Shown here: positions 694 through 45,915 of the stretch, one piece after another | How the letters are laid out: each line of letters begins with the position of its first letter | How positions within the stretch are numbered: the stretch's first letter is position 1 | Assembly: GCF_022045235.1 (NCBI RefSeq) | Contig: NW_027266270.1 | Span: forward strand, 9,486,001 to 9,550,000 | Length of the DNA stretch: 64,000 nt | Origin: Haliotis cracherodii | Taxonomy: Eukaryota | Direction of reading: 5' to 3' | Translations under genes and position numbers: made by a program | The notes under the pieces: generated by a model | Seen by the model: only the letters and a program-made list of their open reading frames with translations | Database searches by the model: none | What the model was told of the DNA's origin: nothing

Positions 694-2145
694 TCATCTG
701 GTTACACACGACAGCTGGAAAAGAGTAAAGTATCCAAAATTAGAACAGCAATAAAGACTATTTGATCATCTAATATTCGAAGTTCTTTGCAGTCTATATT
801 TATCAATCCCTTAAAAATCATTCGGTTCCTTGAAATGTTCCTCAACCAAATCAATTACATATACGTTTATCATGCGTGTGGCCCAAGTGTGGTCAATGCC
901 AAGAGCATCTCAAGCTACATACCTGGCAGATGAGTTTCTGTGCTGGTCGTTTATGTTGGTAGGTCCAGGCTAAATCCAGAAGGGCTAGACCATGTCCCTG
1001 ACTTTGACATCTCTGGATAAACTGCATACAGGCCGTTCGTAGGTCGGAGAATCCAAATTCCACAGATGCACAGAGTAATCCTGAAAGAACCGAGGACATA
1101 TTGTAATGTGTTTGATAAAATATTATCATGAAGGTGAAGTTCATGTTATGGATAATTGTGTGTGTTTCGCGCATGTGTCATCACGATTAGTGGAATGGCC
1201 ATACTTTTGTGTTGAAATGAATATCCCAGTTAAACAAATGAAGATAGTACTTACCAATCACATTGTTAAAACCGATGTTAGCTTTCCCTGAGTGGACGAA
1301 TTTGAGAAACGCCTGAAAGTCTCCAATGTGGTAGTCAGGAATGGTGATGGTGAGTTTCTGTGAAAAGGGTGAGTCTTTGATCTTTTTGGTCTTGGGTCGC
1401 TCAACGGAGGACTGTTTCTGATGTTGAAGCAAAAGCTGATACATGTACCTAGAGAAAAGAAAGAAAAAATTGAAGACGATATTTAAACACAAACAGTCCA
1501 AAAATTGTTCCCATGTTGAGTACATTCACAGGGTATAAGAGCCAAATGTACTCTACTTAAACATACACTTATTATTGTTCTGACCTTTTTAATGGATTAT
1601 TGTTTTGTAGAATATCTTACCTGCTTCGTGTAGCCATTATGGCTTTGACTCCATGAACAGGAGCCTTCTCCTTCCCAACGAGAAAGGTGACGTCACACAT
1701 CTCTGGCATGTTTAGGATGAGGGAGAGACTGTCCTGTAAGTCCCCTGTGCTTTTAAGCATCATGACGTCACCCCGACCGGAGGACTGTGAGGGGTGAGAG
1801 CTGGATTGGCTGAAAGATCTTGACTTCGAGGTCGTGCTGACGCCTTCATCAGAGGAGTAGTCGCTTGAGTCATAGCCTGAAGAGGTACCTTCAGCTGGAA
1901 TAAGAAAACAAATCAGTTATGAAATAATATTTCATTTGTTGCAAATGTTAGTAAAGCTGAGTGTTGTTTCTTGAACAAAATGTGTCCTTGAAATATACTT
2001 TGAAAAAACCATCAAGGAATTATTATCCTGATGTGATAAAAGTGAATAATGCAAATGTCTCACCGTCTGCGTCATGACCAGTGTGGTCAATAGTTTCCAT
2101 GGCCGAAGAGTCCAGAAGACAAAGTCGGGAATCGTAATGATTCAT
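694..2145 (-). CDS. BTB/POZ-domain protein paralog A1 (gprs/serine-enriched-protein-like BTB, truncated BACK), 5 exons, 242 aa
   Basis: Manually spliced exons 2145-2064, 1894-1621, 1448-1255, 1080-923, 714-694. All introns GT-AG, phases 1/2/1/0, open frame. Translation MNHYDSRLCLLD...SSGYDSSDYSSDE...LSLILNMPEMCDVTFLVGKEKAPVHGVKAIMATRSRYMYQL...FQAFLKFVHSGK...GLLCASVEFGFSDLRTACMQF...LSCVTR*. The CDVTFLVG/VKAILATRS motif is BTB-type. Confidence 0.9.
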
Positions 2146-2283
2146 GTTACTTGTTGTTAGATCTTATTGATAATGAAAGACAGAACTGATATTTGGTTAA
2201 ACTCGGCGAATCTAAAGATCTAAGTATGTATCTCGATGTAATGTTTCCAAGATTGGAATGCCTTCTTCCTCTACCAGACCAGC

Positions 2284-2433
2284 TTTATACCTTTGCGTAT
2301 CACAACACAAATGACAGAGTCATTACTACAACTACATGTCAGGATTAAGTCAATGTTGACACGAAGGCTTCAGCTTAGCACATTTTGCTAGTGGCACGTG
2401 CTGCACTTGTTAATGAGCTGACATCACGTGACC
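2284..2433 (-). promoter_or_regulatory. Conserved proximal promoter of A1 (2 E-boxes, GAAGCC-N3-GTGTCAACAT, TATA)
   Basis: CACGTG at 2395-2400 and 2425-2430, motif at 2371-2353, TATAAA at 2289-2284. The same layout is seen in C, D and E, and in A2 at 6678-6827. Confidence 0.75.
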
Positions 2434-3469
2434 AATCTAAGAATAAGTGTTCTACGGTAATGTCGTCTGTTGTCAAAACACCGAGATAATAGAGTTTGGG
2501 TGATGATGTGTTTCGGGTGTTTGATTATTTAAGGATTTACGATATACGTGTTCATTTGTCGGTGATAAATGGTATTGTGTTATTAAGGATCCATTTGGAG
2601 TCAAGTTATGTTTAATGCGAGTGGAACTTTTAGATGCTAATGATGTAAATGTAGTAACGGTATGTTGATGGAATTATACATTATCTACCTGTATACGTAC
2701 GTGAATTATTTGCACTTGAAATATAAATGTCTAGCGTTATAGATTCCACTCACTGAAAACAGCCATTGTGATTTCCTTATTGAAATAAAATTGAACTAAA
2801 ATAGTTCTGTTATTGAACAGTGTATAAATATATAACTGATCTTTTTTGTTTCAATTTTTTCAAGTGCAAGTGTGATATGACAACAAAGTTAGAGTGTCAA
2901 ATGATTTTTTATTGTTCATGTGTGCAAATGACACCCTGCTATTTCAATAAAATTTGTGTCAGCCAAAGTCATTTCATCGTGTCATTCGTCAAACAAACAG
3001 TTTGCTGAACTGAACTTTATTGTACTCCGGATTACTCGTGACACATAACCACATCATTTGGGATTGAGCGGAGGCGCAGCGATTTGTTGAGTTGAGGGCT
3101 TGGCTATAGATGATATGCACAGTGAGGAGTATTGTTTAATCATAAATTGAATGTGTGATTGTACGATTGCTGATAGATGTTGTAGACAAGCTAGTCAAGT
3201 GGTACATGTTTTTTAAACAAATTGATTGGCAATCAAGGCGCTTTGATGAACAATCTTCCAACGTGTCACATATAACTAGAACCTTTGAAAACACAAAGAC
3301 CACGTGCACATTATCAGGAAATGGCACATGAGACTTGTAGTGATGACATTATTGATACACATGGTCCGCTCTGACTTCCGAAAAGCCAGAGACAGTTGCC
3401 AGTGACATGAAATGGTTCTGAGACAATAATGTCAATACATGTTTCCTTTGTTATTTCCAGCATTTGCTA

Positions 3470-5087: not shown

Positions 5088-6539
5088 TCATCTGGTTACA
5101 CACGACAGCTGGAAAAGAGTAAAGTATCCAAAATTAGAACAGCAATAAAGACTATTTGATCATCTAATATTCGAAGTTCTTTGCAGTCTATATTTATCAA
5201 TCCCTTAAAAATCATTCGGTTCCTTGAAATGTTCCTCAACCAAATCAATTACATATACGTTTATCATGCGTGTGGCCCAAGTGTGGTCAATGCCAAGAGC
5301 ATCTCAAGCTACATACCTGGCAGATGAGTTTCTGTGCTGGTCGTTTATGTTGGTAGGTCCAGGCTAAATCCAGAAGGGCTAGACCATGTCCCTGACTTTG
5401 ACATCTCTGGATAAACTGCATACAGGCCGTTCGTAGGTCGGAGAATCCAAATTCCACAGATGCACAGAGTAATCCTGAAAGAACCGAGGACATATTGTAA
5501 TGTGTTTGATAAAATATTATCATGAAGGTGAAGTTCATGTTATGGATAATTGTGTGTGTTTCGCGCATGTGTCATCACGATTAGTGGAATGGCCATACTT
5601 TTGTGTTGAAATGAATATCCCAGTTAAACAAATGAAGATAGTACTTACCAATCACATTGTTAAAACCGATGTTAGCTTTCCCTGAGTGGACGAATTTGAG
5701 AAACGCCTGAAAGTCTCCAATGTGGTAGTCAGGAATGGTGATGGTGAGTTTCTGTGAAAAGGGTGAGTCTTTGATCTTTTTGGTCTTGGGTCGCTCAACG
5801 GAGGACTGTTTCTGATGTTGAAGCAAAAGCTGATACATGTACCTAGAGAAAAGAAAGAAAAAATTGAAGACGATATTTAAACACAAACAGTCCAAAAATT
5901 GTTCCCATGTTGAGTACATTCACAGGGTATAAGAGCCAAATGTACTCTACTTAAACATACACTTATTATTGTTCTGACCTTTTTAATGGATTATTGTTTT
6001 GTAGAATATCTTACCTGCTTCGTGTAGCCATTATGGCTTTGACTCCATGAACAGGAGCCTTCTCCTTCCCAACGAGAAAGGTGACGTCACACATCTCTGG
6101 CATGTTTAGGATGAGGGAGAGACTGTCCTGTAAGTCCCCTGTGCTTTTAAGCATCATGACGTCACCCCGACCGGAGGACTGTGAGGGGTGAGAGCTGGAT
6201 TGGCTGAAAGATCTTGACTTCGAGGTCGTGCTGACGCCTTCATCAGAGGAGTAGTCGCTTGAGTCATAGCCTGAAGAGGTACCTTCAGCTGGAATAAGAA
6301 AACAAATCAGTTATGAAATAATATTTCATTTGTTGCAAATGTTAGTAAAGCTGAGTGTTGTTTCATGAACAAAATGTGTCCTTGAAATATACTTTGAAAA
6401 AACCATCAAGGAATTATTATCCTGATGTGATAAAAGTGAATAATGCAAATGTCTCACCGTCTGCGTCATGACCAGTGTGGTCAATAGTTTCCATGGCCGA
6501 AGAGTCCAGAAGACAAAGTCGGGAATCGTAATGATTCAT
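5088..6539 (-). CDS. BTB/POZ protein paralog A2 (copy of A1 at +4394)
   Basis: Exons 6539-6458, 6288-6015, 5842-5649, 5474-5317, 5108-5088. The sequence is essentially identical to A1. Confidence 0.85.
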
Positions 6540-9480
6540 GTTACTTGTTGTTAGATCTTATTGATAATGAAAGACAGAACTGATATTTGGTTAAACTCGG
6601 CGAATCTAAAGATCTAAGTATGTATCTCGATGTAATGTTTCCAAGATTGGAATGCCTTCTTCCTCTACCAGACCAGCTTTATACCTTTGCGTATCACAAC
6701 ACAAATGACAGAGTCATTACTACAACTACATGTCAGGATTAAGTCAATGTTGACACGAAGGCTTCAGCTTAGCACATTTTGCTAGTGGCACGTGCTGCAC
6801 TTGTTAATGAGCTGACATCACGTGACCAATCTAAGAATAAGTGTTCTACGGTAATGTCGTCTGTTGTCAAAACACCGAGATAATAGAGTTTGGGTGATGA
6901 TGTGTTTCGGGTGTTTGATTATTTAAGGATTTACGATATACGTGTTCATTTGTCGGTGATAAATGGTATTATGTTATTAAGGATCCATTTGGAGTCAAGT
7001 TATGTTTAATGCGAGTGGAACTTTTAGATGCTAATGATGTAAATGTAGTAACGGTATGTTGATGGAATTATACATTATCTACCTGTATACGTACGTGAAT
7101 TATTTGCACTTGAAATATAAATGTCTAGCGTTATAGATTCCACTCACTGAAAACAGCCATTGTGATTTCCTTATTGAAATAAAATTGAACTAAAATAGTT
7201 CTGTTATTGAACAGTGTATAAATATATAACTGATCTTTTTTGTTTCAATTTTTTCAAGTGCAAGTGTGATATGACAACAAAGTTAGAGTGTCAAATGATT
7301 TTTTATTGTTCATGTGTGCAAATGACACCCTGCTATTTCAATAAAATTTGTGTCAGCCAAAGTCATTTCATCGTGTCATTCGTCAAACAAACAGTTTGCT
7401 GAACTGAACTTTATTGTACTCCGGATTACTCGTGACACATAACCACATCATTTGGGATTGAGCGGAGGCGCAGCGATTTGTTGAGTTGAGGGCTTGGCTA
7501 TAGATGATATGCACAGTGAGGAGTATTGTTTAATCATAAATTGAATGTGTGATTGTACGATTGCTGATAGATGTTGTAGACAAGCTAGTCAAGTGGTACA
7601 TGTTTTTTAAACAAATTGATTGGCAATCAAGGCGCTTTGATGAACAATCTTCCAACGTGTCACATATAACTAGAACCTTTGAAAACACAAAGACCACGTG
7701 CACATTATCAGGAAATGGCACATGAGACTTGTAGTGATGACATTATTGATACACATGGTCCGCTCTGACTTCCGAAAAGCCAGAGACAGTTGCCAGTGAC
7801 ATGAAATGGTTCTGAGACAATAATGTCAATACATGTTTCCTTTGTTATTTCCAGCATTTGCTACAATAGATTCTGCCACGCAATGCATTCGCGACTACGA
7901 TTAGCTTGTAGTGATCTCAGCTTACACAAAGCTCATAGAATGATTTCAAATAAGTCATCCTGCTCTTGTGGCGCTACTTGCGAAACTACAACTCATTATT
8001 TATTTGGATGTCAATATTAGTACACACATAGAAATAATATGTTTGTTATCCAATTGGATACGATCTTGTGACCGTAAGATCCTAAGTGGAATATGGAAAT
8101 GTTGCAAAAATCGGTAAGTAAAAGGGTAGATTTCATTCAGTCTGTGCATCGTTACATCTGTCACATTAAATGAAGCAATTAGGGTTCATTGTTCAAACAC
8201 ATACTAGTATCTTATAAGCAAAACCTTCCATTGTTGAGTCGTGTTATTGAATTAACATCTGAATGCCAGGCTATATGTGCTTCCTATGAAATCACAGCTC
8301 ATACACTGATATCCCGTGCAGAATAGCTTGTAATGGATTGGCATCAACATAAGACATGGGCTTGTTTTCCAATCCAGTTTGATTTCAAGCAATAATTTTA
8401 TTTCAACCATTCTCAAATAATCATTTACGTAAAGCCTAAGAAAAGCTTCAACTTTCCACACTTTCTAATTATGGTTACATGCACTCTCAGAAAAAAACAA
8501 CTCTTTAGTGTTGTATTGTCTCAGACGTACGTTTGAAATATCAAAGATCATTAAAATTTACATGTGCAACATACGTTACACCTAATTATATACAAATGAG
8601 CTAATGACATTAACATGCGTGTTCAAGTTCTTTTTACCACGAAAGCTCTTTGCAGATACAGTTGACAACAATGTGTCCTTTATTAATGAGATAAAATATG
8701 CAGTATTTCAGCTAAATATGGAAGGAAAGCCGCAAATGGCGTACAACTTCTAAATCTAGATTCAAACCAACAAACACTGGATTCTGGACGCAACTGTGCA
8801 TACAGAAATGCGGTGGTCGAGGCCACACATGTCAACAATGAAAATGAATGGATATGTATTTGGTATTTTTGTAACATTTTATTTTCTAAAAAAAATCGTA
8901 ATTCTGATTAAATCGCAGTTCCTGTAATGCTCAGTTGAAATAATATATGATAATACATGTTCTTGAATGTATTGTATCTGTTCATTGTTACAACATAAAC
9001 TGTCACCATGCAAGCAATGTGGAAATGTAAAACTTAAACAGGTTCATATTTTCTGCCAATACTGTTTAATGAACATAGTAATACATAACATGTGTCGCTA
9101 TTTTTATACATTCACACTGACACTGGCAAGGAACATAAGTACGATGACACTGTTAAGTACTTGTCGGTATGCTTTGTTCCTTCACATTAACAACAACGTA
9201 CAATGTGCAAGTCAAGAATCATGTTTGACAATGCTATTGTCTTCACACACAGAGTGTCTTGGTGACTTTATCTTCGTCTTCGTCAACCACAGCTTTGTGA
9301 CGCTCTAAACGTTATGGGACTGAGCGACAGTGACTGGTGTCTTCTTCTTCATTTCGTCGTCTTCGTCATCTTGAACAACAGGCTTGCTGCTGTTGGTTTA
9401 TCCTCTCGTTGGGAACAGAGAATGTAGTGTGGATATTGATCCTACTGTTGGGAACCTTCATGTAAGCTCGGTTGCGGTTT

Positions 9481-10237
9481 TCATCTGGTTACACACGACA
9501 GCTGGAAAAGAGTAAAGTATCCAAAATTAGAACAGCAATAGAGAGTATTTGATCATCTGATATTCGAAGTTCTTTGCAGTCTATATTTATCAATCCCTTA
9601 AAAATCATTCGGTTCCTTGAAATGTTCCTCAACCAAATCAATTTCATATACCTTTATCATGCGTGTCGCCCAAGTGTGGTCAATGCCAAGAGCATCTCAA
9701 GCTACATACCTGGCAGATGAGTTTCTGTGCTGGTCGTTTATGTTGGTAGGTCCAGGCTAAATCCAGAAGGGCTCGACCATGTCCCTGACATCTCTGGCAT
9801 GTTTAGGATGAGGGAGAGACTTTCCTGTAAGTCCCCTGTGCTTTTAAGCATCATGACGTCACCCCGACCGGAGGACTGTGAGGGGTGAGAGCTGGATTGG
9901 CTGAAAGATCTTGACTTCGAGGTCGTGCTGACGCCTTCATCAGAGGAGTAGTCGCTTGAGTCATAGCCTGAAGAGGTACCTTCAGCTGGATTAAGAAAAC
10001 AAATCAGTTATGAAATAATATTTCATTTGTTGCAAATGTTAGTAAAGCTGAGTGTTGTTTCATGAACAAAATGTGTCCTTGAAATATACTTTGAATAAAA
10101 ACATCAAGGGATTATTATCCTGATGTGATAAAAGTGAATAATGCAAATATCTCACCGTCTGCGTCATGACCAGTGTGGTCAATAGTTTCCATGGCCGAAG
10201 AGTCCAGAAGACAAAGTCGGGAATCGTAATGATTCAT
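9481..10237 (-). pseudogene. BTB paralog A3, internally deleted (exon 2-exon 4 fusion, frameshift)
   Basis: Exon 1 is 10237-10156 and exon 2 starts at 9985. The junction at ~9787 (gtccctg|acatctctggcatg) removes the equivalent of A1 1001-1696. The frameshift gives ...MPEMSGTWSSPSGFSLDLPT* (TAA 9740-9738), about 109 aa with no BTB core. Confidence 0.85.
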
Positions 10238-10361
10238 GTTACTTGTTGTTAGATCTTTTTGATAATGAAAGACAGAACTGGTATTTGGTTAAACTCGACG
10301 AATCTAAAGATCTAAGTATGTATCTCGATGTAATGTTTCCAAGATTGGAATGCCTTCTTCC

Positions 10362-10424
10362 GACTGACTGACTGATATAGAAGATTTAACGTGCGCTTTC
10401 CGACTACAGCGTATTTCGCACACG
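10362..10424 (-). mobile_element. Short retroelement 3'-tail insertion with (CAGT)n end in the A3 5' region
   Basis: Absent at the homologous A1 site (~2262-2270). Flanked by TTCTTCC repeats. Confidence 0.55.
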
Positions 10425-11020
10425 GTTCTTCTTCCTCTACCAGACCAGCTTTATACCTTAGCGTATCACAACACAAATGACAGAGTCAACTACAACTATA
10501 TGTCACGATTGCTGCACTTAATGAGCTGACATCACGTGACCAATCTAGCCGTGAGTGTTCCACGGTAATGCCGTCTGTTGTCAAAACACCGAGATAATAG
10601 AGTTTGGATGATAATGTGTTTCCTTTGCCGGTGTTAAATGGTATCTTGTTTGAAGCTTCTATTTGTACAGAAGTTATATTTGATGTGAGTTTAATGTTTA
10701 GATGCTAATAATGTAGATGTAGTTACAGAATGTTGGTGGAATTATACAATATCTACCTGCATAAATAAGTGAATTATTTGCACTTGACATATAGATATTA
10801 AATTGAAGACAGTCATTGTGATTTCCTTATTAATTTGAAATTGAACTGAAATAGGTCTATTATTGAACTGTGTTTAAGCATAACTGATCTTTTGGTGTGT
10901 TTTTTGCTGTTGCAATTTTCTCAAGTACGAGTATGATAACACAAAGTTAGAATGGCAAATTATAGAAGAGAATGTTTCTATTTCTGGTATGTGCATATGA
11001 CTCCCTGCTATTTCCTTAAA

Positions 11021-11187: not shown

Positions 11188-13905
11188 CTATTCCCTTAAA
11201 ATTTGTGTCAGCCAAAGTCAATTCACCGTGTCACTCTTCATTCAGTTTGCTAAACTGAAACTTTATTGTGTTCTGGAATACTCGTGACACATGACCACAT
11301 CATTTGGGAATGTTGAAGAAAGCGAAGATGATTCTCAGCTTCACTCAACACAAAGCGCAAAAAAATCATTTTAAGATGTTTGTAGATGGTTTGCTAACAA
11401 CCGGTGTCAACATGATTTATTTTCAGAATTTATGATGATATTTTAAAGTTTACCAAAATGTACAACTTTTATGTATATAACCAACATGTTGAATAAACAT
11501 AAACAAGAAAGAAATGAATAACAAATCAGTTCAATCTGTTGTAGATCACATATTATATTATAAATTAATTCATGACCAAAATAATTAAGTCAGAATTAAA
11601 TCGTCATTTGCGATACGTTTTTTTAATAATAAAAAACCTGTATCATCAGTCCACTTTTCGTCTCTTTGTATGTGCATCTTTTAGGTGAGCTTTTGATGCC
11701 TCACCAGATAGCCAGATACTTCTCGTGTGGCATATGTTTCTAGGAAAGCGAAGTCCTTGGTACCCATTCACACAACCATTCATTTCTTCTGCAATATCTA
11801 TTTTCAACAACACTTACAAGCAATATTATATAAGGATGACATGGTGTGTACAGGCAAGGTTATATAAGGATGTCATCGTATGTATGTATATAAACCTGAA
11901 TGTACAAGGCAATGGCTGGAATTGTTCCTTACATATCCAGTACTACTTCATAGGTGTTACCACCTCATTTAGAAACTGGCACTCATCTTCAGGATTAAAC
12001 TTCCAAATCTAATAGAAATCTCTGCAAAGAAGTCGCAAACAGCAGAAAAGAGGCATGGGTTTTATAGTTTGAGCTCTTGTATCATTCCACAAAGTGACAT
12101 ATTTGTTTAGAGACAGAGACAAATGAAGTCGTTCCCTGAACCAAATAGGTTTTTTTAGTCGTACTAGATGTAAGGAAAATATCCACAGTGTCTCAAATTA
12201 AATACGTACTTTACACATTTTCCCTCATCACAAAATGACATTTTTCCATTAAAGGACACCTTTCCTTCTGACATTGTATTTTCAATGTTTAGCTTTAATG
12301 TGTTACTGTTCTGGCATAGTATTGTAATCACAAAGTAGATAACAATTAAGATAACAAGTGTATAATGTCCTGTTAATTAGATCATCAATTAAATTGCATT
12401 GGTGTGTGTATTCAGCTGTTTATGGGCAATTAACTTACATGATAATGGCAAGACAAACTTCAGGAGGAACTGACACATTACAGATACTGTATGTAATGCC
12501 CTGAGGGCGACTTCCAGAACGAAATAACCCGACATTTTTACAATAATATGTTCGTCAACATTACGACTTTTAAGCTGTCATGACACTGTTTATAGTAATG
12601 TGCAATAATTGTAATCAATAGGTATTTTATCATGTGCATTCTTAAGATCGATGAACATCAAAATATAGTTGTTTGATCTGGATTTGTGGGATGAAACTGT
12701 GTAGGGTCTTCGCAGAAAGAAACTTGTCGTAAATATATTCTTAGTATTATTCCTCGCTTAATTCTTTTCTTCAAACTATCAGATGGAATATCATCAAGTA
12801 ACCAATTAATAACATGTATCGTAATAAATATTTAATGGAAGATTATATGGTATGTTTAAGGAAATTCTCTTAAAGTCCTTGTGCCCTTTTTCATGCGAAT
12901 TCTATGATGAATAAGTCACACAAATACCTGGTTGGAATAGGTAGAATGTGTTTGATTTAAGTTGAAAGACAACAGTTATATTAATTACTTACCATTTAGG
13001 GTTACACATTTGGAAAAAATCAGTAATGACTGTAAACAAAACTTAGGTGAAACCTCAACAGTCGTATGCATTTTAAAATTCGCAAAGTTTAACTTGAGAC
13101 AACATCAAGTACATATACGAAATATGAGTAAAAATACTTGGGAGAAAATTTGCCGAACCATGCCATGCATATAACATTGTCCTAAAGATGTTGCAATGTC
13201 AATGCTTTTCCCCTTCGGGCTTATCAATTTATGTACCTATTTGCCTGAAATATCATAGTTACAATGGACTAAGTACGAATTGTGTTCCCAGGTTATAAGA
13301 CGCAGCCCCAGAGTAAAGAAAATGAAGTATATAACAGTTCAAACGAATTAACTAGTTAAAGTTTATATTAGGCTTCCTTGCTTTTATAGCGCAAACACGA
13401 TTGTTACTAAGGATAGCATAACCAACCGAAATAAACACATATCCCCGCTTCACCTGGAATCTGTGATTTCAATGTATTCAGTAGCGCTTAATTAAGATTC
13501 CGAAACACATTCATTGTATAGTTGTTTACTTATAGATGCCTGTAAAAAGGGAGAACCTCGCTGCATCTTTGTCATTCTACTTGGGTCTTAAATTCTTTTG
13601 TGTGTGCATTGTAGAAGTGATAGATCAACTTAATGAAAGCACATAAGCAAATTATCGGAAACATGAGTTTGTTATATGTATATAGCATTATAAATGATAA
13701 TAGGTGACTAAGGTATAAATATATTACACTGCCAATGCCACACGCCTATTTACAAATTGAAATGTAGCATCAACGTTTCGAACCATACTTCGTGCCTTCC
13801 TTTAATTTGTGAAATTGCATGATATCTATTTCTCTTTGCATCTCAACATGTTTACAAAAATGGACCCGTCTACTTGTCTATATACAGGCGTGTGTAGGTA
13901 CCATA

Positions 13906-14790
13906 TAGACAGACAGACAGACAGATTGTTTATTTGAGTCTCACCTCACAAAAATAATTACATAAATACATATAAAAGGACATAAAAGTGAGCCACCCGT
14001 TAAGGGTTACGAGAGACTTAAAATATATCACAGTATGTACAGCATAAATATATTGGTGTAAAAGGGGTATGAAAATATACTACCCGCAACTAGCCATGTA
14101 AAATATTTTTTCTTCGTGGGAGAATTAAAAAGCAGGTTTTGGCTGTTAAATATACATAATATTTAAAAAGTACAATAAGTATATCAGTATTGGATAACTC
14201 TAGATAGTTGGGATAGCTAAAACTCACCTTTTCGTATAAACTTTCACGCAAATCATCGTACACAGGACAATCAAGCAATACATGACATTCATCTTCAATA
14301 CTTCCCTTACACTGAAAACACACTCTTTCATTCCCATTCATATTCATATATCTGCCTGTTTCCAACTTCAGAGGAGCAGTACATGATATAAATTTGGAGA
14401 AGGCAGAGCGGTAAGAACGAGGCATATACATACTTACATAACTTTCACATCCATACCCATCTTTAAACATTCTATACGTACGTAATTTGTTACCACCCGT
14501 TCTTCCGCCAGGCTTGCATAACCGTTCATTGCAACCAGGCACATACTTTCCCATGCATATATCTTGCACACGTACAACTACACTTTTCACGCTAACATTC
14601 TCAGAAAAATTCAGACCCCATTCGTTCAGCTTTGCCCTCAGACGAAAATTCCAGTTTTTCACACGTCCACCAGCATAACGTTCAGACCACATAAAAGCAT
14701 ACTTATTTAATCTAAGGGACATTTTAGTAAAACGACAATACTGTCTAACAATACACATCCACTGTCTAACTATCGGAGGAATCCATCATG
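13906..14790 (-). mobile_element. 5'-truncated LINE (ORF2 C-terminus, 3'UTR, (TCTG)n tail)
   Basis: ORF 14090-14758 contains NKLRTYRMFK...APLKLETGRY...ERVCFQCKGSIEDECHVLLDCPVYDDLR. AATAAA followed by (TCTG)n at ~13935-13907. Absent from the homologous spacer at ~23655. Confidence 0.9.
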
Positions 14791-15769: not shown

Positions 15770-17070
15770 TTAATTGTATGGATCCAATTCATAATTTTAT
15801 TGTGTGCAGATGATGCTGTATTATTTGATGAATCACCAGAAGGTTTATAGAAAGGCTTAGACACTTTTAATGAACATTGTGAAGAGTGGAAATTACATGT
15901 AAATATAAACAAAAATTGTGATTTTCGGTGGTGACCCATCGAAAAATTCGAAACATAAATTTCACTATTCTGATAAAACTCTAAATATTGTCGACACTTA
16001 TACGTATCTAGGAATTGTACTTCACAGGAATAGAAAACTAGTATCAAGTCTTAGGTCCCTTAGTGATAATGCATTGAAAGCAATGTTTTGTCTGATAAAA
16101 AATCAAGAAATTTAAATTTACCTTTCGACTGTGTATTATCAGCTTTTGATACGATGGTATTACCAAATATTAACCTATGGTTCAGAAATCTGGGGCTTTG
16201 AAAATTTAGAACTTATAGAAAGAATACACCTCAAATTCCTCAGACTGATCACAGGATTAAGAAATTCAGCTCCTCTTTATATGATATATGGCGAATTAGG
16301 TAGGCTGCCGTTAAGAATAATAATTTGTAAAGGAATGATATCTTTCTGCTACAAATTAACACATCAAACTGGTGTGTATAAACTTTCACAGCTGTTATAT
16401 CAATATTTGTCAATTAATAGGAATAAGACTATTGCATCAAAAAAGCCCTGGGTTAGACGTGTTATGGATATATTAGACAGTATTGAATTATCTTATGTAT
16501 TTAACATTCCGTCAATTTGCACAACAAAGTGGCTAGTGTCAGAAGTAGAGCAAATGCTTAAAGATAATTCTTTTCAGAAATGGAGAAGTGACGTTAATTT
16601 TAGTTCTAAAGGATTATAATATAAACATTTAAAGGACACTCCGGCTCTCGATAAATATCTTCTATTGCCAAAACGAATAGCAATTCCAATACTACGATTT
16701 CGAACCTGTAATCATAATTTACCTAATGAGACTGGCCGATAGAAAAATATGTAAATCTCCATCTATTGCTGATGAATTTCACTACTTATTCAGATGTATG
16801 TTTTTTAAAAGAGAGACACAAACATTTCTCTCATCATATTATACTGAATGGCTAAATATTATAATAATATAAAACTCTTATCAACAACAAACACACAGGA
16901 TGTAAAGAATTTCTCGAAGTTTATTGTAAAAATGTCCATTAGTATTAAAAATGCTAGGTAATCACATGTTGTTTATTAACTTCCACCTTGTCTGCTTTTT
17001 GTACATATACATAATTATTTATTGTAATATGTACCACCTTTTATGGTTTTTGAGAATAAACTGATTCTGA
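15770..17070 (+). mobile_element. Decayed LINE ORF2 (RT domain end to 3' tail)
   Basis: LLCADDAVL (RT YADD motif), ILTYGSEIWG...MIYGELGRLPL, LRFRTCNHNLPNETGR, ADEFHYLFRC. Contains frameshifts and stops. AATAAA at ~17055. Confidence 0.9.
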
Positions 17071-17860: not shown

Positions 17861-20000
17861 TCAGCTGCTTACATTGGATAGCTGGAACAAACATGAATTA
17901 TGCAATGGCTAATTATGTCAAATATATTGAACAAATATCGGTTCACTGCACAACTGATCCAGTAATTACAGGCTAATGTAAGGTATTGTCTAGGAGTTGA
18001 ACCACTTTTATCCAAAATTTGATGTATGTTATTGTTACGAATATTTCACCAAAGCAATCAATGCCTACCACGCCTACGTATAACTCGGGATTGGTGCCGT
18101 GATATCACTGAAATGCCTTATTGGTGCAAAATAGCATTTTAACCACTCTCATCAGCCAAGCAATGACCTCGAGTGAGTTAGTATAATGTAAACATGTATG
18201 TATGGTTGTTGGTCAGTGTTCCATTAGTATAATGTCCATTGCTACATGTATTTCCCTTCTACACCAAGTGGAATCTGTTTCGGGAGAAAATCAAGGCTGT
18301 TTTTTCTCTTGCATTGACAATTTATCTTTATTGATCTGAATTGCACTTAAAATAGAGTAGAATAGTTATATGTGTATATATTACAACATAAATAATCATA
18401 TAGCATATGTTTTTCTTATACATACCCGACATATCAGTTTCTGTGCTGTACGTTTGTGCTGGTAGTTCCAAGCAGAGCCGATTAATGCTGATCTATGTCC
18501 CTTGTCTTGTAATATATCATTGAACTTCATGCAGGTCGACTGAAGGTCGGGAAATCCAAACTCGACAGCAGCACAAAGAAGTCCTACAAACAAAAAATAT
18601 TTATAAAAAATATTTGTCACGAAAAGACTTTCGACACACAAAAAAATCAATGCAACAGATATAGAAACAAAATAAGTAAAACAAAGAATGTTCCTTATTA
18701 GTGTTTATATAGAAATATAAAAGCACAAGATTAATGCACACACTTACCTATTACATTGCTGGAATCTATTTCTACCTTGCCCGAATGAACGAAACGTACA
18801 AATGCCCTGAAATCCTCAACTTGATAATCAGGGACCTTGATGCAGAGTTTGTGTTGGATTGGGGAAGGTTTGGATTTCTTTGATCTTTTCTTACTGGTGT
18901 TATCGTATTCGACTTGTTTTTGTTGTTGCAGAATCAGCTGGTACAGGTATCTGAAAATATGGAATTAAAAAGTGTAATGCAAATTCTTTACTGTTACTTT
19001 TCTTACATGGCAAAAATGGCTGAGAACAATCATTTGTACATACAAGTGTTGACCCTGTATTAAGATATGAGCTTACGTTTTGTTTGTATATTGTTCTTGT
19101 AAAATGGATACGAATATTCATACATCTATTTACACGGCTGATATTTTTTAATTTCATGCGTTAAGATGGCAAGCCTGTAACATGTATTACCTGCTTCTGG
19201 TAGCTAAAATAGCCTTGACTCCATAGATAGGAACCTGTTTTCTACCAACAAGGAATGTGACGTCACACATGTCTGGCATTTCCAAAATGAGGCTGAGGTT
19301 ATCCTGAAGCTTCCCTGTACTCCTCAACATCATCACATTCCCGCATGTCGGGTTTCGGATGGATCTACAACGTCCTGTAGGTTGCTGTTTAAAGGCAGAT
19401 GCTGGACATGCTGGAGGGGGGTTTAGGGGTAAGTGGTGGTCGTTTGCCTCCTCATCTGAGAAATCACTCGACTCATAGCCGGAGGAAGAACTTTCTGCTG
19501 AAATCAGTAAATTTGTTTTAAAACAGTGGTTAGATTTAAAAGACAAATACATCATGTATGATGTCGAGTATAACATGAAATAACATCTATAGGTATTATA
19601 TAAGGTAAATAATTTATCGATGTAAACCAGCACACTAATGTCTTGAATAACCTAAACTTCCACGCTTAGGAAAGTATATTAAATCTGAAGTGAATTCTGC
19701 AAAAAATAATTGAAAATATCTTATGATATGTGACTTGTGTATAGACTGGACAGTTCAGAGTACATAAAGAAACATATGATGGGTTCTGGAACGATAGTGT
19801 GACATTAAAACTATAACCCTATAACATTCTCTTATTGAAGGTTAGTGAGTTTGGATTTTAGTCATTTAAATAGCTAAGAAATGTAAACATCATAAACTAT
19901 ATGTATTCTTACCATAAACATCTGATTCGTAGTTACAATGGTCAACATGTTCCAAGACATCACTGTCAAGGAGACAAACTCGGGAATCATAACGGTTCAT
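17861..20000 (-). CDS. BTB/POZ protein paralog C, 5 exons, 258 aa
   Basis: Exons 20000-19913, 19497-19191, 18950-18748, 18583-18426, 17881-17861. GT-AG introns with the same phases as A1. Translation MNRYDSRVCLLD...SSGYESSDFSDEE...MPDMCDVTFLVGRKQVPIYGVKAILATRSR...LSNVSS*. Confidence 0.9.
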
Positions 20001-20110: not shown

Positions 20111-20258
20111 TTTATACCCAAGCGTATCCAAACACAGCTGATAATGTAGTTCTAATCACTTCATGTCAACCAAAATCAATGTTGACATATCGGCTTCTGT
20201 TTCGATTGTTTGCTCGTGCCACGTGGTTCAGTGATGAATTAGTCGTAATCACGTGACC
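20111..20258 (-). promoter_or_regulatory. Conserved proximal promoter of paralog C
   Basis: CACGTG at 20220-20225 and 20250-20255; GAAGCCgatATGTCAACAT at 20197-20179; TATAAA at 20116-20111. Confidence 0.75.
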
Positions 20259-21289
20259 GCTACAACCAAAACAACTTACGGTTTTGACCATTTACTTGTT
20301 AAAACAACCATGATTACTAGAATATCTAGGCTCAGTTGTTTGTTTGTGTCAAGTGGTTAAATGAGACGTGATTGCCGGAAGAGAGTGGAGAGTGATAGAT
20401 TTGTTTTTATATATGTTAGAAATAATTTGTTTTATACTTGAATACAAGCAACAAAACCATTTCCCCAATGATGAGAAATATCTCCGCTTAAGCACAGTCT
20501 GTATTGCGATTCAGACTATATCATATCAAGGTTTAATAATGCATACAAAAGCCACACAAATTGTTATTTAAGTTCTCAAATGGAGGAATCTGTTTATCAA
20601 TATGTTTCGTTTCAGTACATACAATTAAAGGCTACAGTGTAATAACTGTGAGCAATATGAAGCTAACACAAGGCGCAAAAAAATCATATAAATTCGTTTG
20701 TAGATGGTTTGCTTATAACCGGTTTTGTAACGCTTGAAGAAATACTTTAAATGTGGCTCAGCATATCGATGATTAAAATACATGTTTAGACAAGATAGTT
20801 GATTATTTATATGTCAGGTGGAAGAATCTATGTATCAACATGATTGATATTAAGAATATATGATGAAATGTTAAAGATGAACAAAATGTGCAACCTTTAT
20901 GTACATTAACAACATATTGAATAAATATGAATAAGAAAGCGAGGAATAAAAAAATAATTGCAAGCTCTTGTAGATCAAATAGTGTATTATGAATTAATTC
21001 ATGACCAATATATTACTCAGAATAGAATCGCCATTTGCGATACGTCTTTTTCTTTTAAATGTCTGTGTCATCGGTCCATTGTTCGTCTCTTTGTTTTTGT
21101 ACCTTTGAGATTAGTTTTTCATGCTTCGTCAGATACCTTATCTTCTTGTGCGACACACATGTTTTTACGAAAGCAAAGTTCTTGGTACCCATTCACACAA
21201 CTATTCATAAATTATGCAATCTTAGTTTTCAACAACATTTGCAGCAAAGGTATATGAGGATGACATGGTACGTATTGACAAGGTTATAA

Positions 21290-21600
21290 AAGAAGACGAA
21301 GAAGAATATTTTATTATAGTGTCACCCGTTATACATATACAATGACAAGGCAAGGGTGTAAAAACTGATCATCGGCCGGCCAAAATAGCCTATGAGACAC
21401 TAAAAGACTCATAAAAACAATATTTTATTAAATATATGCACACCACTTTTAATAAATAACATTCAAAATATCCCCCGTACAAGCATCCTATTTACACACA
21501 ACCACATCCATTCCAACATCCAGTCCAGACACAGCAGCTTACTCAAACTGTTCAAACACACCCGCTCATTCAAACACATCCAAACCCTTATTGACAACCG
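21290..21600 (-). mobile_element. Probable LINE 3'-end insertion with (TTC)n tail
   Basis: Absent from the homologous spacer at ~11865. AATAAA followed by TTC repeats on the minus strand. Confidence 0.5.
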
Positions 21601-24399
21601 TTGTATCAGGATGTCACAGTGTGTATGTATATTAAACCGAATGTACAAAGGCAATAGCTGGAATCGTACAAATTGTCACTCGTCTTCAGGATTAAAAATG
21701 AGTTTGAAAAAACGTGTAAATCTCGCGTGTGAGGATGTCGTTTGCATTTATTTACTTGTCAATAAAAATGCCCATGTATTATTTCCAGGTATAAAAATAC
21801 GAATGGATAGAAATCGCAAACCGCAGAAAGGAGGCATGGGTTAGATATTTTGAGCCATATTTAGTAAGTGACATATTTTGTTGAAGAGGGATGAGTAAAG
21901 TCGTTCCCTAATCCAAATCAAAATACCCCTTTTTTACTCACACACTGGATTCCCATTGTCCATAGTGTATCAACTTAAACACGTACGTAACACATTTTCC
22001 CTCATCATACATTAAATGACACCTTTCTTCTTGATATTGTGTGTTCAATGTTTAGCATTAAGGTGTTACCGTTATGGCATATCATTGAAATCACATAGTG
22101 GATAACAGTTGAGATAAGAAGTGTATCGTGTCGTGTTAATTAGATCATCAATTAAATTGCACTGCTGTGTGTATTCAGCTGTTTATGTGCAATTAACTTA
22201 CAGGGTAATGCCAATACAAACAATATAAGCAACTGACACATTATAGATACTGTATGTAGAGCCCTGGATGCGACTTCCAGAACGACATAACATGATCCGA
22301 GTGTCAAATAATTAGCATTTTAATTTTTTGTCATGACTCTATTTATCAAAAAATATATATTACAATGTAGTTGTCTGATTTGGTTTGGTGTGGTTAATTG
22401 TGTAGGTTCTTCAAAATATCAGATGAAAGATCATCAAGTAACCACTTAATAAAGTGTATCACATTAAACATATAACGGAAGGTAAGCCATTAGTACATTG
22501 ATGCACACATACATTTGTCTTTTTATCTCATTTGCTAAACAAATCTTTCCAAGCTATTATGCCCTTCGTACAGCGAGTTCAATTGTGAATAAATCACACA
22601 AATATTATTTATTGGAGTATGTCGAAAGGAAAAGCCGAAATAATTAAACATTTGGGAAACAAATTTTTTAAACGAATATGTTCATGTAACTTAAAAGACA
22701 ACTAACCCTTCAGACATACACATTTGTACAAGTTTAATTTACGAAAAGTAATTACGCTTAATAAATTTTAGGTTAAGTCTCATCAGTCGTTTTTGTTTTG
22801 AACATTTTCAAAGTTTGACTGAAAACAACATGAAGTACCAAAATATGTGTCAAATAATTGGGAGAAAGACTTGTATTTCATGACATGCACATGAAAATGT
22901 CATAATAGCAATGTTTGTGTGATTTTATTCATCGAGATGTATTCATTATATGTACCTATTTACCTAACTTAACATATTTACAATGAACTGTGTACGCTTG
23001 TGTTCATAGGCTATTAGACGCAGCTTTAGCGCACAACATAACAGGGTAAAGAAAATAGGGACATTACAGTCCAAAAGAAATTAACTGGTTTTATGTTCAC
23101 ATGGGGCTTCCATGCTTTACAGAGCAAACAAGTTCGCTGGCGGGGATAGCATATCCAACTGAACTGAACACATATGCCTGCTTCACTTGGAAACTGTTAT
23201 TTCAATATATTCAGCAGGGCTTAATTGCGACATTCCGAAACACATTTATTGTTTCCTTGTTTACTTGTAGATGCCTATAAAGAGATAAACGTAGTGTTGT
23301 CAAAGTAAGAACCTCGTTTCTTCTTTGTCATTCTACCTTGATCTTTTATTCTTTCCCTGTACCATTGTGAAGGGATAAAGTAACACAATGAAAGTGTATA
23401 AGCAAATTGTCTACTACATGCGTTTGTTATATCTATGAAGCTTAATGAAGGATATTTGGGGACTAAAGTATAAACATATTATACTGCCAATGTCCCACAT
23501 CTATTTACAAATTGAAATATAGCACATACTTTCCGAAACAAATTTCATGCCTCAATTTAATTTGTGAAATTGTATGATATCAATTTCTCTTTGCATCTCA
23601 ACATGTTTACAATTTAGGACTTGTCTACTTGACTGTACGTGGGCGTGTGTAGGAACATATTTCCGCATGTTATTATACAGGTGTTGATGCTTGTGTGCAT
23701 GTATGCAATTGAACAATATTAAAAAGAAGCATTCATAAGGTGTGTGAAAAATAAACTGGAATGCATGCCTGTAATAACCCTTGTTGTTCGTAAAAGCGAC
23801 AAAACCACATCACGAACCATAAGCAATCTTATTGTACGATTCCAGCTATACCAAAAGCCTGTTTTTATGACTCAAAACTAATTAGTGATGATACCACGTG
23901 ACAGGTGGCTCTAGTGACAAATAGTAAGTCACATTCTATATCATGCACGTTTAACTTTTCCTAGGATGATTACATTTCATGGTTTTAGATCACAACTTGA
24001 ACATCTTGGCATATTTGCATCTGTGTATTCATTCACGTATGTTATTTTATAACTACAAAACGTCACTGCCAGAGAACAACCAGTCTCGATTATCCGCCCA
24101 AATAGTTTCCATTGGGTGTACAAGGCAAAACAACAGTGAACATCAGTGACGACATCGGTTAATACGGCCCAGCAATGATAACGAATTACAAGACATTCGT
24201 ACAAAAAACACTTTTAATTCATACTTTGAAATACAACCATTGCGTTCAATTGTATGAACCAGATCAATACATTAAAATAATAGATTATATTGAGCACACA
24301 GTCTCTGTAATTATAAGTGTTATTTGGATTGACGTTGCTGTGGAACTTCTCCAGTCCATATACATCATTGTGTGTCATTACAATGCGCAGAGACATGTA

Positions 24400-40001: not shown

Positions 40002-40150
40002 GGTCACGTGGTGGTCATTACTGTAATCACAACAGTAACTGACATGAGAAAGGTAAAGTGGAAGCCTATGTGTCAACATAGGAGTTCTCGGGACAACGGC
40101 ATTGTGGCACTGCCATCTCCATCATTGTGTTGACAGTCAGGGGTATATAA
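40002..40150 (+). promoter_or_regulatory. Conserved proximal promoter of paralog F
   Basis: GGTCACGTG at 40002-40010; GAAGCCtatGTGTCAACAT at 40061-40079; TATATAA at 40144-40150. Confidence 0.7.
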
Positions 40151-40267: not shown

Positions 40268-42087
40268 ATGAACCGTTGTGATTCTCGTGTTCACCTGTTG
40301 GATTGTGATATCCTTGAGGATGTCCGTCAGGTAGAGCTAGAAGGTAGGTCATACCTGTGTTATTGTCTCTCTGTGCTATGATGTGGGATGCATACAAACC
40401 GACCTCAAGATAATAACTTCTGAAAGTTTCTGGAGTGTCCGAAATAAATATACTACCGTCGGTATACGTTTTGTACCCTTTCCATCACATTTTGGACATT
40501 TTCAGTAATTCTATCTACTTGATATATTTGATGAAATGGATGATCTGAATTCATGATTATGTTCCTTTTTAATATTAGTTTTATTCAGGAACAGGAAAGC
40601 ATGTGCATGACAGCTTATATTCAATAAATATTTATTTTTCAGCTGAAAGTTCCTCTTCTGGGTACGATTCCAGCGAGGACGACACCCCCTCTCGCTCAGC
40701 AATGAAGCCGTCCCGCTCCACCCAAGGGGAGGTCATGATATTTAGAAGCACCGGGGGTCTGCACGATAGCCTTGCTCTCATTCTTGATATGCCAGAGATG
40801 TGTGACGTCACATTCCTGGTCGGGAGGAGGCAGGTTCCTGTCTATGGTGTCAAAGCTATTCTGGCTACGAGAAGCAGGTAAGGTTCGATTACAAACCACC
40901 CATTGGGGAAGGGATGGGTCTGCCATTGTCCAGTAACAGTCCCTCCATGCTAGTTCTCACTTGTGAGACTAGTAGCCATTGCTGATTTAGCTAATAACAC
41001 TTGAACAACTCATTTTCCACACACACAAGAACGCCACCCGTAGAGGAAAGTATCACTACAATATCCCAAGTAGGTTGCCTGTACTCCATATTGGATAAAT
41101 GACAGTCCCACGTGTGACATGTATCCCGTCTATCACATGAAAACGTTACTAAATTAAGGTATAGAAGTAACATTGTTCTACCAAGGAAGTGCCGCTTCAT
41201 TCATTCATCAACTATGATGCATTTCTCAGCAGGCAATTTTTTATTCGTGTTGCAGATGCTTGTACCAACTAATTCTTCACCACCAAAGGAAGGCGGAGAC
41301 GGAATCATCCAACAAAAAGTCAAAGAAGGCAAAACGTTCACCCCTCCCCCAGAAGCTGGTGATCAACGTGCAGGACTACTCAGCTGAGGATTTCAGAGCG
41401 TTCATCACATTCGTACACTCGGGAAAGGTCAAGGTTGACGCCAGCAACGTAATTGGTAAGTCACTGGCCATTATAAAACGAATATACTACAAGCACTATT
41501 GACTCTTCATATTCCATCTCCTTGTTAAAAATCAGGGCCATTGTAATGATGTGTTTATTTTCAAATTAAGTTATTTTTCGTTTCTTCAGGTCTCCTCTGT
41601 GCTTCTGTCGAATATGGATTCTCCGACCTTCATGCCGCATGCGCAAAGTTCATCCAGAGATCCCAGGAGCAAGGTCAAAGCAAATACGTTCTTGATTCAG
41701 CGTGGACCTACCAACACAAGAAGGCGGCTCAGAAACTTATTTGCAAGGTAAGCATCCTGATCTATCTATACACTGCACTGATGTTTCTTTGATGTTTCAC
41801 AATACCCGTAGGCTTCACCAAAAATGGTAAACGCATAAGAACTGTATCTCTACAGGCTTCCTCCCACATTAATATTACGCGCCGTGATCTAAAATCCACC
41901 AAATGATGATAACGCTCACGTTAAAGCGTTACATTATTAACCTGCAGTCAGTGTGCACTCGATTTTCATTCTAAGCTTCCTCGGGAGTTTTAATTCTCGC
42001 AATGTCATCAGCTTATATATCGAATAATCTGTGAGACCGTATTATCATTTCTCATTACTCTTTCAGCTCTCCAGTGTCTCCAGATGA
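40268..42087 (+). CDS. BTB/POZ protein paralog F, 5 exons, 229 aa, head-to-head with E
   Basis: Exons 40268-40343, 40643-40877, 41256-41455, 41590-41747, 42067-42087. GT-AG introns with the same phases. Translation MNRCDSRVHLLD...SSGYDSSEDD...MPEMCDVTFLVGRRQVPVYGVKAILATRSR...LSSVSR*. Confidence 0.9.
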
Positions 42088-44235: not shown

Positions 44236-44531
44236 ATGTATTGATAAATCTGAGAATTTATTAGATAAACCTATTGTCTATCTGTTCTTCATTAATTAAC
44301 ACTAGCGATGATTTACAAAATGGGTAAATTCAAATATATAATGAAACTCAACGCCAGCTGACATTGTGCACAAAGGACATATTATATCAGGACTGAATGT
44401 ATCTATATATAGGTTGATAGTGATTGCTTCTTCTAAATCTAATCAAAAGGTTTTTACATGTTACACTTATGTACATGTAAGGTCCTTTCCCAAGCTGACG
44501 TTGATTCATGAATAACATTTACACATTTAAA

Positions 44532-45915
44532 CGTGATACAAGGGAGATCCCCAGTACCCATTCCGTGATACAAGGTTGATCCCCAGTAGTCATTCTGTGA
44601 TACAAGGTAGATCAACAGTAGCCATTCCGTGAAACAAGGTACATCCCCAGTACCCATTCCGTGATACAACGTAGACCCCAGTACCCTTTCCTTTATACAA
44701 GGGAAATCCCCAGTAGTCATTCTGTGATACAAGGTAGATCCCCAGTACCCATTCTGTAATACAAGGTGTATCCCCAGTACCCATTCTGTGATACAAAGTA
44801 GATCTCCAGTACCCATTCTGTGATACAAGGGAGATCCCCAGTAGCCATTCCGTGATACAAGGTTGATCTCAAGTAGCCATTCTGTGATACAAGGTAGATC
44901 CCCAGTACCCATTCCGTGATACAAGGGAAATCCCCAGTAGTCATTCTGTGATACAGGGTAGATCCCAATATCCCAACCCGTGAGAGACCGTAGATCCCAA
45001 GTACCCATTCCGCGAGACAAGGTATATCCCCAGTACTCGTTTCGTGATACAAGGTAGATCCCCAGTACCCATTCCGTGATACAAGGGAGATCCCCAGTAC
45101 CCATTCTGTGATACAAGGGAGATCCCCAGTACCCATTCTGTGATACAAGGGAGATCCCCAGTACCCATTCTGTGATACAAGGGAGATCCCTAGTACCCAT
45201 TCCGTGATACAAGGTAGATCCCCAGTACCCATTCTGTGATACAAGGGAGATCCCCAGTAGCCATTCTGTGATACAAGGTTGATCCCCAGTACCCATTCCG
45301 TGATACAAGGTAGATCCCAAGTACCCATTCCGTGATACAAAGGAGATCCCAAGTACCCATTCTGTGATACAAGGTAGATCCCCAGTACCCATTCCGTGAT
45401 ACAAGGTTGATCCCCAGTACCCATTCCGTGATACAAGGTATATCCCCAGTACACATTCCGTGATACAAGGGAGATCCCCAGTACACATTCTGCGATACAA
45501 GGTAGATCCCCAGTACCCATTCCGTGATACAAGGTTGATCCCCAGGAGTCATTCTGTGATACAAGGGAGATCCCAAATAGTCATTCTGTGATACAAGGTA
45601 GATACCCAGTACCCATTCTGTGATACAAGGTAGATCCCCAGTACCCATTCCGTGATACAAGGTTGATCCCCAGTAGTCATTCTGTGATACAAGGTAGATT
45701 CCCAGTACCCATTCTGTGATGCAAGGTTGATCCCAAGTAGCCATTCCGCGAGACAAGGTGCATCCCCAGTAGCCATTCTGTGATACAAGGTAGGTCCCCA
45801 ATATCCCAACCCGTGAGAGACCGTAGATCCGAAGTACCAATTCCGCGAGAAAAAGTATATCTCCAGTACACATTCCGTGACACAAGGTATATCTCCAGTG
45901 CCCAATCCATGATAC
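44532..45915. repeat. 32-bp minisatellite array (~43 units)
   Basis: Unit CGTGATACAAGGKAGATCCCCAGTACCCATTC. The ORF track shows 32-aa periodicity, equal to 3 units. Confidence 0.95.

Follow-up and report, generated by a model that had tools for sequence, protein, structure and literature searches.

Several described systems combine elements of the kind discussed here. In promoters that DAF-16/FOXO binds together with HLH-30/TFEB (PMC6199276), an E-box and a forkhead-like word lie together in the proximal promoter, which gives a precedent for the pairing of bHLH and forkhead factors that an earlier note on the present locus had suggested. The CLOCK:BMAL1 tandem element presents two E-boxes at a fixed distance, and the Per1 promoter combines E-boxes with a CRE (bioRxiv 2025.09.04.674342). 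BMP-Smad composites of the GC-SBE/SBE type (PMC11907993, PMC3203580) join a 6-mer ending in GCC, a 5-nt spacer and GTC, and exonic enhancers, or dual-use codons (PMC4745165, PMC4207465), are factor sites in coding sequence that constrain codon choice. As for the product, SPOP/KEAP1-type BTB/3-box CUL3 adaptors have a BTB fold with following helices, as is predicted for the protein encoded here, and the arthropod gprs 'serine-enriched protein' has in common with it a CDVTFLVG stretch. To our knowledge, few mollusc promoters have been mapped at base level.

Here we analyse 64,000 nt of the abalone Haliotis cracherodii (assembly GCF_022045235.1, contig NW_027266270.1, positions 9,486,001 to 9,550,000), a stretch that we call the window. 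Seven copies of a single gene (A1, A2, B, C, D, E and F) occupy its first 42 kb, and the motifs studied are the proximal promoter of this tandem abalone family of 'serine-enriched protein-like' BTB genes. Whereas the DAF-16/HLH-30 sites are described as mere combinations, the abalone promoters have near-fixed spacing, the word TGTTGAC and an attached GAAGCC half. In contrast to the tandem element and to Per1, the gap between the abalone E-boxes is 24 nt and not 6-7 nt, and the CRE lies inside a coding exon. Both halves of the abalone motif differ from every tested functional BMP-Smad sequence, and five more of its bases are invariant. With regard to exonic enhancers, the difference is that one 8-bp palindrome, of putative activity, is unchanged between abalone and bivalve-like loci, the control being long gprs loci that encode the same residues. 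Finally, and unlike SPOP, KEAP1 and gprs, the abalone protein, of ~250 aa, has an N-terminal degron-like tail, and no domain of MATH, Kelch or Pfam BACK type is listed for it. The parts are mostly familiar; the novelty, within the main texts of open-licence papers, is the composite motif together with the deeply fixed exonic CRE, neither of which was found there.

The locus comes with natural controls in place, namely saturated paralogs, a broken copy without the module, and long gprs loci in which the same residues have free codons. It offers a clean case of codon choice constrained, over deep mollusc divergence, to spell a factor site, its uncatalogued composite motif can serve as bait for the cognate factor, and it gives a testable role to a BTB family without mollusc literature that we could find: the gene name 'serine-enriched protein' led to a yeast paper and to nothing for molluscs in the main texts of open-licence papers, and mollusc transcriptome supplements may list these BTB genes as responsive. 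If induced by fasting, heat or the clock, the gene would be a marker for farmed and threatened abalone. Reading the sequence, we give about an even chance to a promoter inducible by feeding or stress, at which USF/TFEB-type bHLH factors, CREB and a cooperating dimer would control a short-lived, CUL3-adaptor-like product.

Seven gene copies in four old lineages

The ATGs lie on the minus strand at 2145 (A1), 6539 (A2), 10237 (B), 20000 (C), 27793 (D) and 35130 (E), and on the plus strand at 40268 for the inverted copy F. The earlier note had listed six copies of the motif, which stands, but had missed the seventh gene copy, B. Exon 2 of A1 (1621..1894, minus strand) encodes a serine-rich stretch and the start of the BTB domain. 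It has up to 89-92% identity to Haliotis 'serine-enriched protein-like' BTB proteins, and a H. cracherodii protein entry is identical to the exon 2 query over the 32% that it covers.

Over 4394 bases, A1 and A2 show 2 differences, and C and D are separated by a dS of 0.10. In pairwise comparisons of A, C/D, E and F, pS is 0.67-0.79 and dN 0.22-0.27, the same base being found in all of them at 5 of 27 four-fold sites; corrected dS between the old lineages runs from 1.7 to undefined and is unstable. Such near saturation of synonymous sites makes A, C/D, E and F four old lineages. Because A1 and A2 are near-identical and C and D are recent, the E-box pair described below counts as evidence from three independent lineages, and the bipartite motif as evidence from four.

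Copy B (9300-10950) belongs to the A type and is broken, with a coding deletion of ~690 nt from exon 2 to exon 4 and an early stop. Its decayed promoter (10354..10538, minus strand) keeps E-box 1 at 10533 and has lost ~53 nt with E-box 2, the N-box-type word and the motif, while its core promoter has gained 74 nt from TATA to initiator, where a 66-nt insert that ends in (TCAG)n is framed by 8-nt direct repeats. This is one case in which the module was lost together with decay of the gene.

The start of the window falls inside the A array. Depth of A-type contigs over positions 2060-2620 was ~113 + 113 in run X7 and 215-240 in run X13, far above the 11-13 seen in both runs for the E promoter. 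This suggests that the 4.4-kb A unit has been amplified roughly 10-20-fold in two sequence types, with the reservation that contig depth is not copy number. Over exon 2 of E, high-depth paralog contigs are stacked in all three DNA runs, X6 included. Upstream of B (11404-13906) and of C (20832-23660), which are genes of different lineages, we observed common blocks of 73-84% identity, suggesting an older segmental duplication or shared repeats.

Architecture of the promoter

In A1, all elements lie on the minus strand. The first in the direction of transcription is a TGTT-type block (2475..2480), which precedes E-box 1 by ~45 nt (by 35 nt in F). E-box 1 (TCACGTG, 2425..2431) is followed after 30 nt by E-box 2 (2395..2400), which is present in A, C, D and E and not in B or F. 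One base past E-box 2 comes an N-box-type word, CACNAG (2388..2393), found in A1, C, D and E with only N varying, and absent in B and F. The bipartite motif GAAGCC-N3-RTGTCAACAT then occupies 2353..2371, and the inverted partner of its TGTCA, TGACA, lies at 2337..2341 (A, C, D and E; GGACA in F). The TATA box (2284..2289) and an initiator-like CATT (2256..2260), the A of which, at 2259, is the predicted transcription start, complete the promoter.

The module of A2 lies at 6747..6824 (exonic CRE 6082-6089), that of C at 20179..20255 (TATA 20116, initiator A 20086, exonic CRE 19258-19265), that of D at 27974..28051 (TATA 27910, initiator A 27880, exonic CRE 27065-27072) and that of E at 35276..35353 (TATA 35230, initiator A 35200, exonic CRE 34350-34357), again on the minus strand. 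In F the module is on the plus strand (40005..40079), consists of E-box 1 and the bipartite motif only, and is followed by TATA at 40144, the initiator A at 40174 and the exonic CRE at 40803-40810. The initiator A lies 30 nt past the start of TATA in 5/5 intact copies examined (A1, C, D, E and F).

One contig of run X16 skips intron 1 of E with exact ends (35043 to 34580), and an E-type gene thus appears to be spliced. The X16 contig also covers the E motif and extends upstream past the predicted start by ~120 nt; transcription may begin upstream of the predicted E site, contigs being unable to fix a start. For the A promoter there is one X16 contig at depth 2.2 and none in X19, which counts neither way. 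Within intron 1 of E, a short, MITE-like element (34827-34997) has a summed depth >200,000 and joints on opposite strands.

Spacing of the elements

The earlier note had described a rigid, enhanceosome-like module with two CACGTG words exactly 30 bp, or about 3 helical turns, apart in A1, A2, C, D and E, and the bipartite motif 22-23 nt further on. The coordinates proved exact: start-to-start, the pairs are 30 nt apart at 2395/2425, 6789/6819, 20220/20250, 28016/28046 and 35318/35348, and these five are the sole CACGTG pairs less than 100 nt apart among the 20 such sites of the window. They amount, though, to three independent lineages and not to five copies, and 30 nt make 2.86 turns at 10.5 bp per turn. 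The motif indeed begins 22-23 nt past E-box 2 on the gene strand (minus in A-E, plus in F), and inverted F, as had been noticed, holds the motif and one E-box; the retained one is the distal, 56 nt from the motif versus 58-59 nt elsewhere.

For A1, C, D, E and F, in this order, the distance from E-box 1 to the motif is 59, 58, 59, 59 and 56 nt, from the motif to the inverted TGACA 30, 29, 30, 30 and 30 nt (TGACA thus beginning 29-30 nt past the motif start), and from the motif to TATA 82, 81, 82, 64 and 83 nt. The 30-nt E-box pair is one step of a roughly 30-nt lattice. Non-coding DNA of C and D differs by ~0.12 indels per substitution, and the probability of an indel-free 24-nt E-box spacer over three lineages is 0.012-0.0003 for tree lengths of 1.5-2.7. 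Suppression of indels in the E-box spacer is the part of the enhanceosome reading that holds. However, F lacks E-box 2 and is shifted by 3 nt, and in E the stretch from motif to TATA is 18 nt shorter, a difference that does not correspond to full helical turns; what the spacing supports is a constrained promoter and not a demonstrated enhanceosome.

Conservation of the motifs against their flanks

The bipartite motif occurs six times in the window, all copies being exact even when 2 mismatches are allowed, against 0.22 expected, and 0/100 shuffles reach six. Since raw shuffle counts are inflated by paralogy, the motifs were tested against their flanks. In the four-lineage alignment, invariant columns make up 15/19 of the motif, 8/12 of E-box 1 and its flanks, 7/14 of E-box 2 with 8 further bases, 6/10 of TATA and 5/8 of the initiator. 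The corresponding values are 4/21 and 3/15 in the spacers (7/36 together), 1/17 in the gap between TATA and initiator, 7/111 in the 5'UTR, and 10-19 of ~150 in the introns, where the longest runs are 1-2 nt and where the ends of several control introns were misplaced by some bases. The motifs are thus conserved well beyond their flanks (15/19 vs 7/36 columns), a comparison by which, according to the earlier note, its proposal could have been refuted.

An alignment-free approach gave a similar picture. Over the 360 nt that precede the ATG, 10 hexamers are common to A1, C, E and F, and their lone common 9-mer is the right half of the motif (0/300 shuffles in each case); two distal 360-nt windows and three introns yielded no 7-mer common to these four copies.

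Run X7, which bears the label of another organism, provided a second A-type contig with 21 substitutions in 322 nt. In this one contig, which makes up the whole of the cross-species test, 1 substitution falls in the 83 four-lineage-invariant positions (5.4 expected, P 0.013) and 2 in the 124 three-lineage-invariant positions (8.1 expected, P 0.003). At the 27 positions that the earlier note took as fixed, there are 0 substitutions versus 1.76 expected, which falls short of significance (P 0.149). At 2362, the substitution leaves the R of the motif intact, and the indels of the contig lie outside the E-box spacer, ~10 nt beyond E-box 1. In a same-species run, a 2-nt deletion lies just outside E-box 1 of E. 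Among the differences listed for X7 and X13, none fell in the E promoter, which was not counted as evidence of conservation.

With homologous, colinear copies and with A1/A2 and C/D of recent origin, the shared words might be read as a neutral residue, left by duplication, by gene conversion or by a common transposon. Synonymous saturation, unalignable introns and the interspersion of short invariant blocks all speak against such a residue, to which we give hardly any probability. The E promoter, moreover, is found at the single-copy depth of 11-13, versus >200,000 for the intron 1 repeat; a transposon origin was rejected on this depth, neutrality being already largely refuted. We conclude that the module is very probably a selected promoter.

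Related loci outside abalone

In metagenome contigs we found 34 related loci. Four of them (L001-L004) fit short mollusc proteins better, L002 and L003 being nearly identical, and 30 fit long BTB-BACK proteins, which L034 does only marginally better. The proteins closest to L001 and L004 are from heterodont bivalves (59-63%), and both loci include promoters. That of L001 has GTCACGTG 76 nt before TATA; no CACGTG was found near the TATA of L004. The bipartite motif is absent from both promoters, the best matches reaching 9 and 10 of its 15 fixed bases, and is hence abalone-specific so far. Looser matches (2-3 mismatches) occur in 7/34 loci, which is chance level, and in none of L001-L004. Metagenome contigs contained 0 instances of the strict pattern of two E-boxes and motif, no relative came from viral contigs, and prokaryote genomes gave two weak, unrelated matches only. 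CRE-like and E-box words overlap at 136-153 of the L001 promoter, and CACGTG also occurs inside exon 2 in L002 (399) and L004 (1617).

Candidate factors at the E-boxes

E-box 1 has a 5' T in all four lineages, extended to GT in A, B, C, D and F, with T only in E. The GT-flanked form, GTCACGTG, is of USF / MiT-TFE type, is found in A, B, C, D, F and L001, and is what we take to be a CLEAR-type site. The ChoRE of ChREBP/Mondo has its E-boxes 5 nt apart, and was rejected here on account of the different gap. The CACNAG word beside E-box 2 has the form of a HES N-box. The term N-box was not found in PMC8431614, a source in which a 5' GT flank of the E-box favours USF over MYC-MAX; the 5' T/GT flank rules against MYC-MAX at E-box 1.

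CLOCK:BMAL1 tandems in highly rhythmic targets have E-boxes 6-7 nt apart (bioRxiv 2025.09.04.674342). The abalone E-boxes are canonical CACGTG, but their 24-nt gap is not the 6-7 nt required, and this element was rejected; the clock bHLH input that had been proposed for the module is not borne out by this geometry. A clock-controlled gene with Per1-like logic, possibly a component of a mollusc clock loop, would use CLOCK:BMAL1 at the E-boxes, repression by HES/Cwo at the N-box, CREB for resetting by light or another stimulus, and a PER2-like degron. Canonical E-boxes together with a CRE are the arrangement of mouse Per1 (bioRxiv 2025.09.04.674342), the SSGY(D/E)S of the protein resembles SSGYGS of PER2, and a rhythmic Bmal1 is reported from abalone (PMC9189711). 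Yet the gap is 24 nt where the clock element has 6-7 nt, and the GT flank of E-box 1 suits USF, so that we regard clock control as unlikely, and keep USF/TFEB-type factors as the preferred candidates.

Candidate factors at the bipartite motif

In the earlier note, GTCAACA was read as a forkhead-type core through which FoxO might act. Forkhead proteins have a broad consensus, RYMAAYA, and forkhead-type words number 1-4 per promoter versus 0.9-1.4 in shuffles, at or near shuffle level. T-box sites have a GG 5' flank, which is absent at the motif. Read on the other strand, the right half of the motif is TGTTGACA. The canonical FoxO DBE, TRTTTAC, which is also the DAF-16 element (PMC6199276), was rejected, the motif having TGTTGAC in 6/6 copies, one base off. 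Conversely, TGTTGACA equals the T-box word TGNTGACA (PMC12000411) in 6/6 copies, and a T-box / TALE site (TGNTGACA / TGACA) is matched. As TGTTGAC departs from the DBE and is an exact T-box match, FoxO stays as a candidate only. The right half also resembles words of conserved sites in PMC551538, which have no assigned factor there.

The whole motif can be read as GCC-N5-GTC in 6/6 copies, with the 5-nt spacer and the back-to-back GnC of Smad sites. The canonical Smad element was rejected, since GAAGCC is not GGCGCC, GGAGCC or GNCGNC, and GTCA is not GTCT; in BMP-Smad composites, single substitutions largely abolish the response (PMC11907993, PMC3203580). The fixed 3-nt gap of the motif suggests one dimer or one long binder.

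These observations bear on a developmental or tissue-specific module, built on T-box/TALE proteins or on a divergent BMP-Smad composite (GCC-N5-GTC) with bHLH partners. Such a module would account for the match of TGTTGACA to TGNTGACA in every copy and for the inverted TGACA partner that TGTCA has at a fixed distance, and a 6-mer, a 5-nt spacer and GTC reproduce the back-to-back G(+1)/C(+3) geometry of Smads (PMC11907993). But both Smad halves depart from functional sequences, the Smad reading leaves five invariant bases unexplained, and the CRE and degron point to fast inducible control; we hold a developmental module to be quite unlikely. An inducible promoter, with a cooperating pair at the motif, is still the reading that we prefer.

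A CRE palindrome fixed in exon 2

The most deeply conserved element of the locus had escaped the earlier note. It is the palindrome TGACGTCA, the full form of the CRE consensus, which in A1 spans the Cys-Asp-Val-Thr codons (1688..1695, no strand assigned); a second exonic CRE (1763..1770, likewise) exists in A-type copies only, also at 6157 and 9854. All 9 perfect CRE palindromes of the window lie in exon 2 of the BTB family, against 0.96 expected in the window. The Cys-Asp-Val codons are identical in 7/7 short-family lineages (A1, C, E, F, L001, L002 and L004), and 0/20 other invariant residues keep one codon across them. Under the codon usage of the family, chance would produce this with a probability of ~6e-6 for seven lineages, before correcting for ~20 possible triplets. 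Among long gprs-type loci with the same residues, 2/26 use the CRE codons (Fisher P 8e-6, a value inflated by the relatedness of these 26 loci); 4 of the 34 loci (L019, L020, L023 and L034) yielded no value in this comparison. Measured from the predicted start, the CRE is 570-850 nt further downstream, and ~700 nt in both bivalve-like loci, an unusual position; the word could also be a splicing or RNA signal. L004 has four perfect CREs in 5.8 kb (1762, 2465, 3175 and 4113).

Synonymous constraint in exons is often due to splicing. Together with the X16 contig that covers the E motif up to 35321, this favours the possibility that the conserved words act at the RNA level, through a longer 5'UTR isoform, a structure or an exon 2 splicing signal. 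On the other hand, positions 1-43000 gave no Rfam match, and for the consensus fold the covariation term is unfavourable (+1.08), its pairs being confined to invariant palindromes; with neither an Rfam match nor a covarying fold, a structured RNA element was rejected. Action through RNA is also at odds with the fixed TATA-initiator geometry downstream of the motifs, and with an exonic word that is a perfect, CpG-holding DNA palindrome not kept in long gprs loci with the same exon end. We consider it very improbable, and read the word as a putative CREB site of the inducible promoter.

The encoded protein

For the short family, with proteins of ~250 aa, PF00651 is the only Pfam domain listed; exon 2 alone gave no Pfam match, and a search by sequence found no solved structure. 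A structural model is confident over most of residues 61-230, with low-confidence termini, and matches the BTB/3-box structures of SPOP and KEAP1, the top match being the SPOP BTB/3-box (E 1.5e-6). A separate substrate-binding domain was not found, no MATH, Kelch or Pfam BACK being listed. In the disordered N-terminus, SSGY(D/E/S)S is present in 18/18 aligned family proteins that include the N-terminal part (SSGYDS in A1, codons 1866..1883, minus strand). This degron-like hexamer fits a DSGxxS-like beta-TrCP pattern and is one residue from SSGYGS, the beta-TrCP degron of PER2 (PMC11223080). From fold and hexamer, we infer that the protein would bind CUL3 and turn over rapidly.

A proposed model of inducible control

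The conservation and spacing of the motifs, their loss in the broken copy, the fixation of the CRE codons and the splicing of the E-type contig are direct observations. Under the inducible reading, class-B bHLH dimers of USF/TFEB type would occupy the E-boxes, and competition with the activator would come from a HES-type repressor at the N-box, which is one base away from E-box 2. The bipartite motif would be bound by a cooperating pair, likely including a forkhead or T-box/TALE protein, and CREB/ATF would act at the CRE of exon 2. CREB, FoxO and TFEB act together in fasting. The product would be a BTB/3-box protein that carries a beta-TrCP-type degron and is short-lived, and because an unstable BTB/3-box product would have no separate substrate domain, the output of the gene would be pulses of a CUL3-pathway modulator. 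In this model the factor names, the start site, the inducibility and the protein turnover are all what we infer from the elements above.

A bolder version can be put forward, which we think unlikely: the short BTB family would be an unrecognised immediate-early or clock-loop component with a Period-like build (E-boxes, CRE, N-box and beta-TrCP degron), acting on CUL3 ligases, with a CRE retained in the BTB coding exon from the gastropod/bivalve split onward and a motif that is an undescribed dimer site.

Other features of the window

Beyond the BTB genes, the open frames at 14090-14785 (minus strand) and 16116-16619 (plus strand) had no Pfam match at E 0.01; by eye, they look like the C-terminal portion of proteins from non-LTR retroelements. 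The interval 44450-47300 is a long tandem repeat in which frames are stop-free, and microsatellite tracts with strong GC skew lie at 48900-53000. Further downstream, at 60573-60839 (plus strand), there is an exon with a SAM/Pointed domain (PF02198, E 7e-8), which likely belongs to an ETS-family gene.
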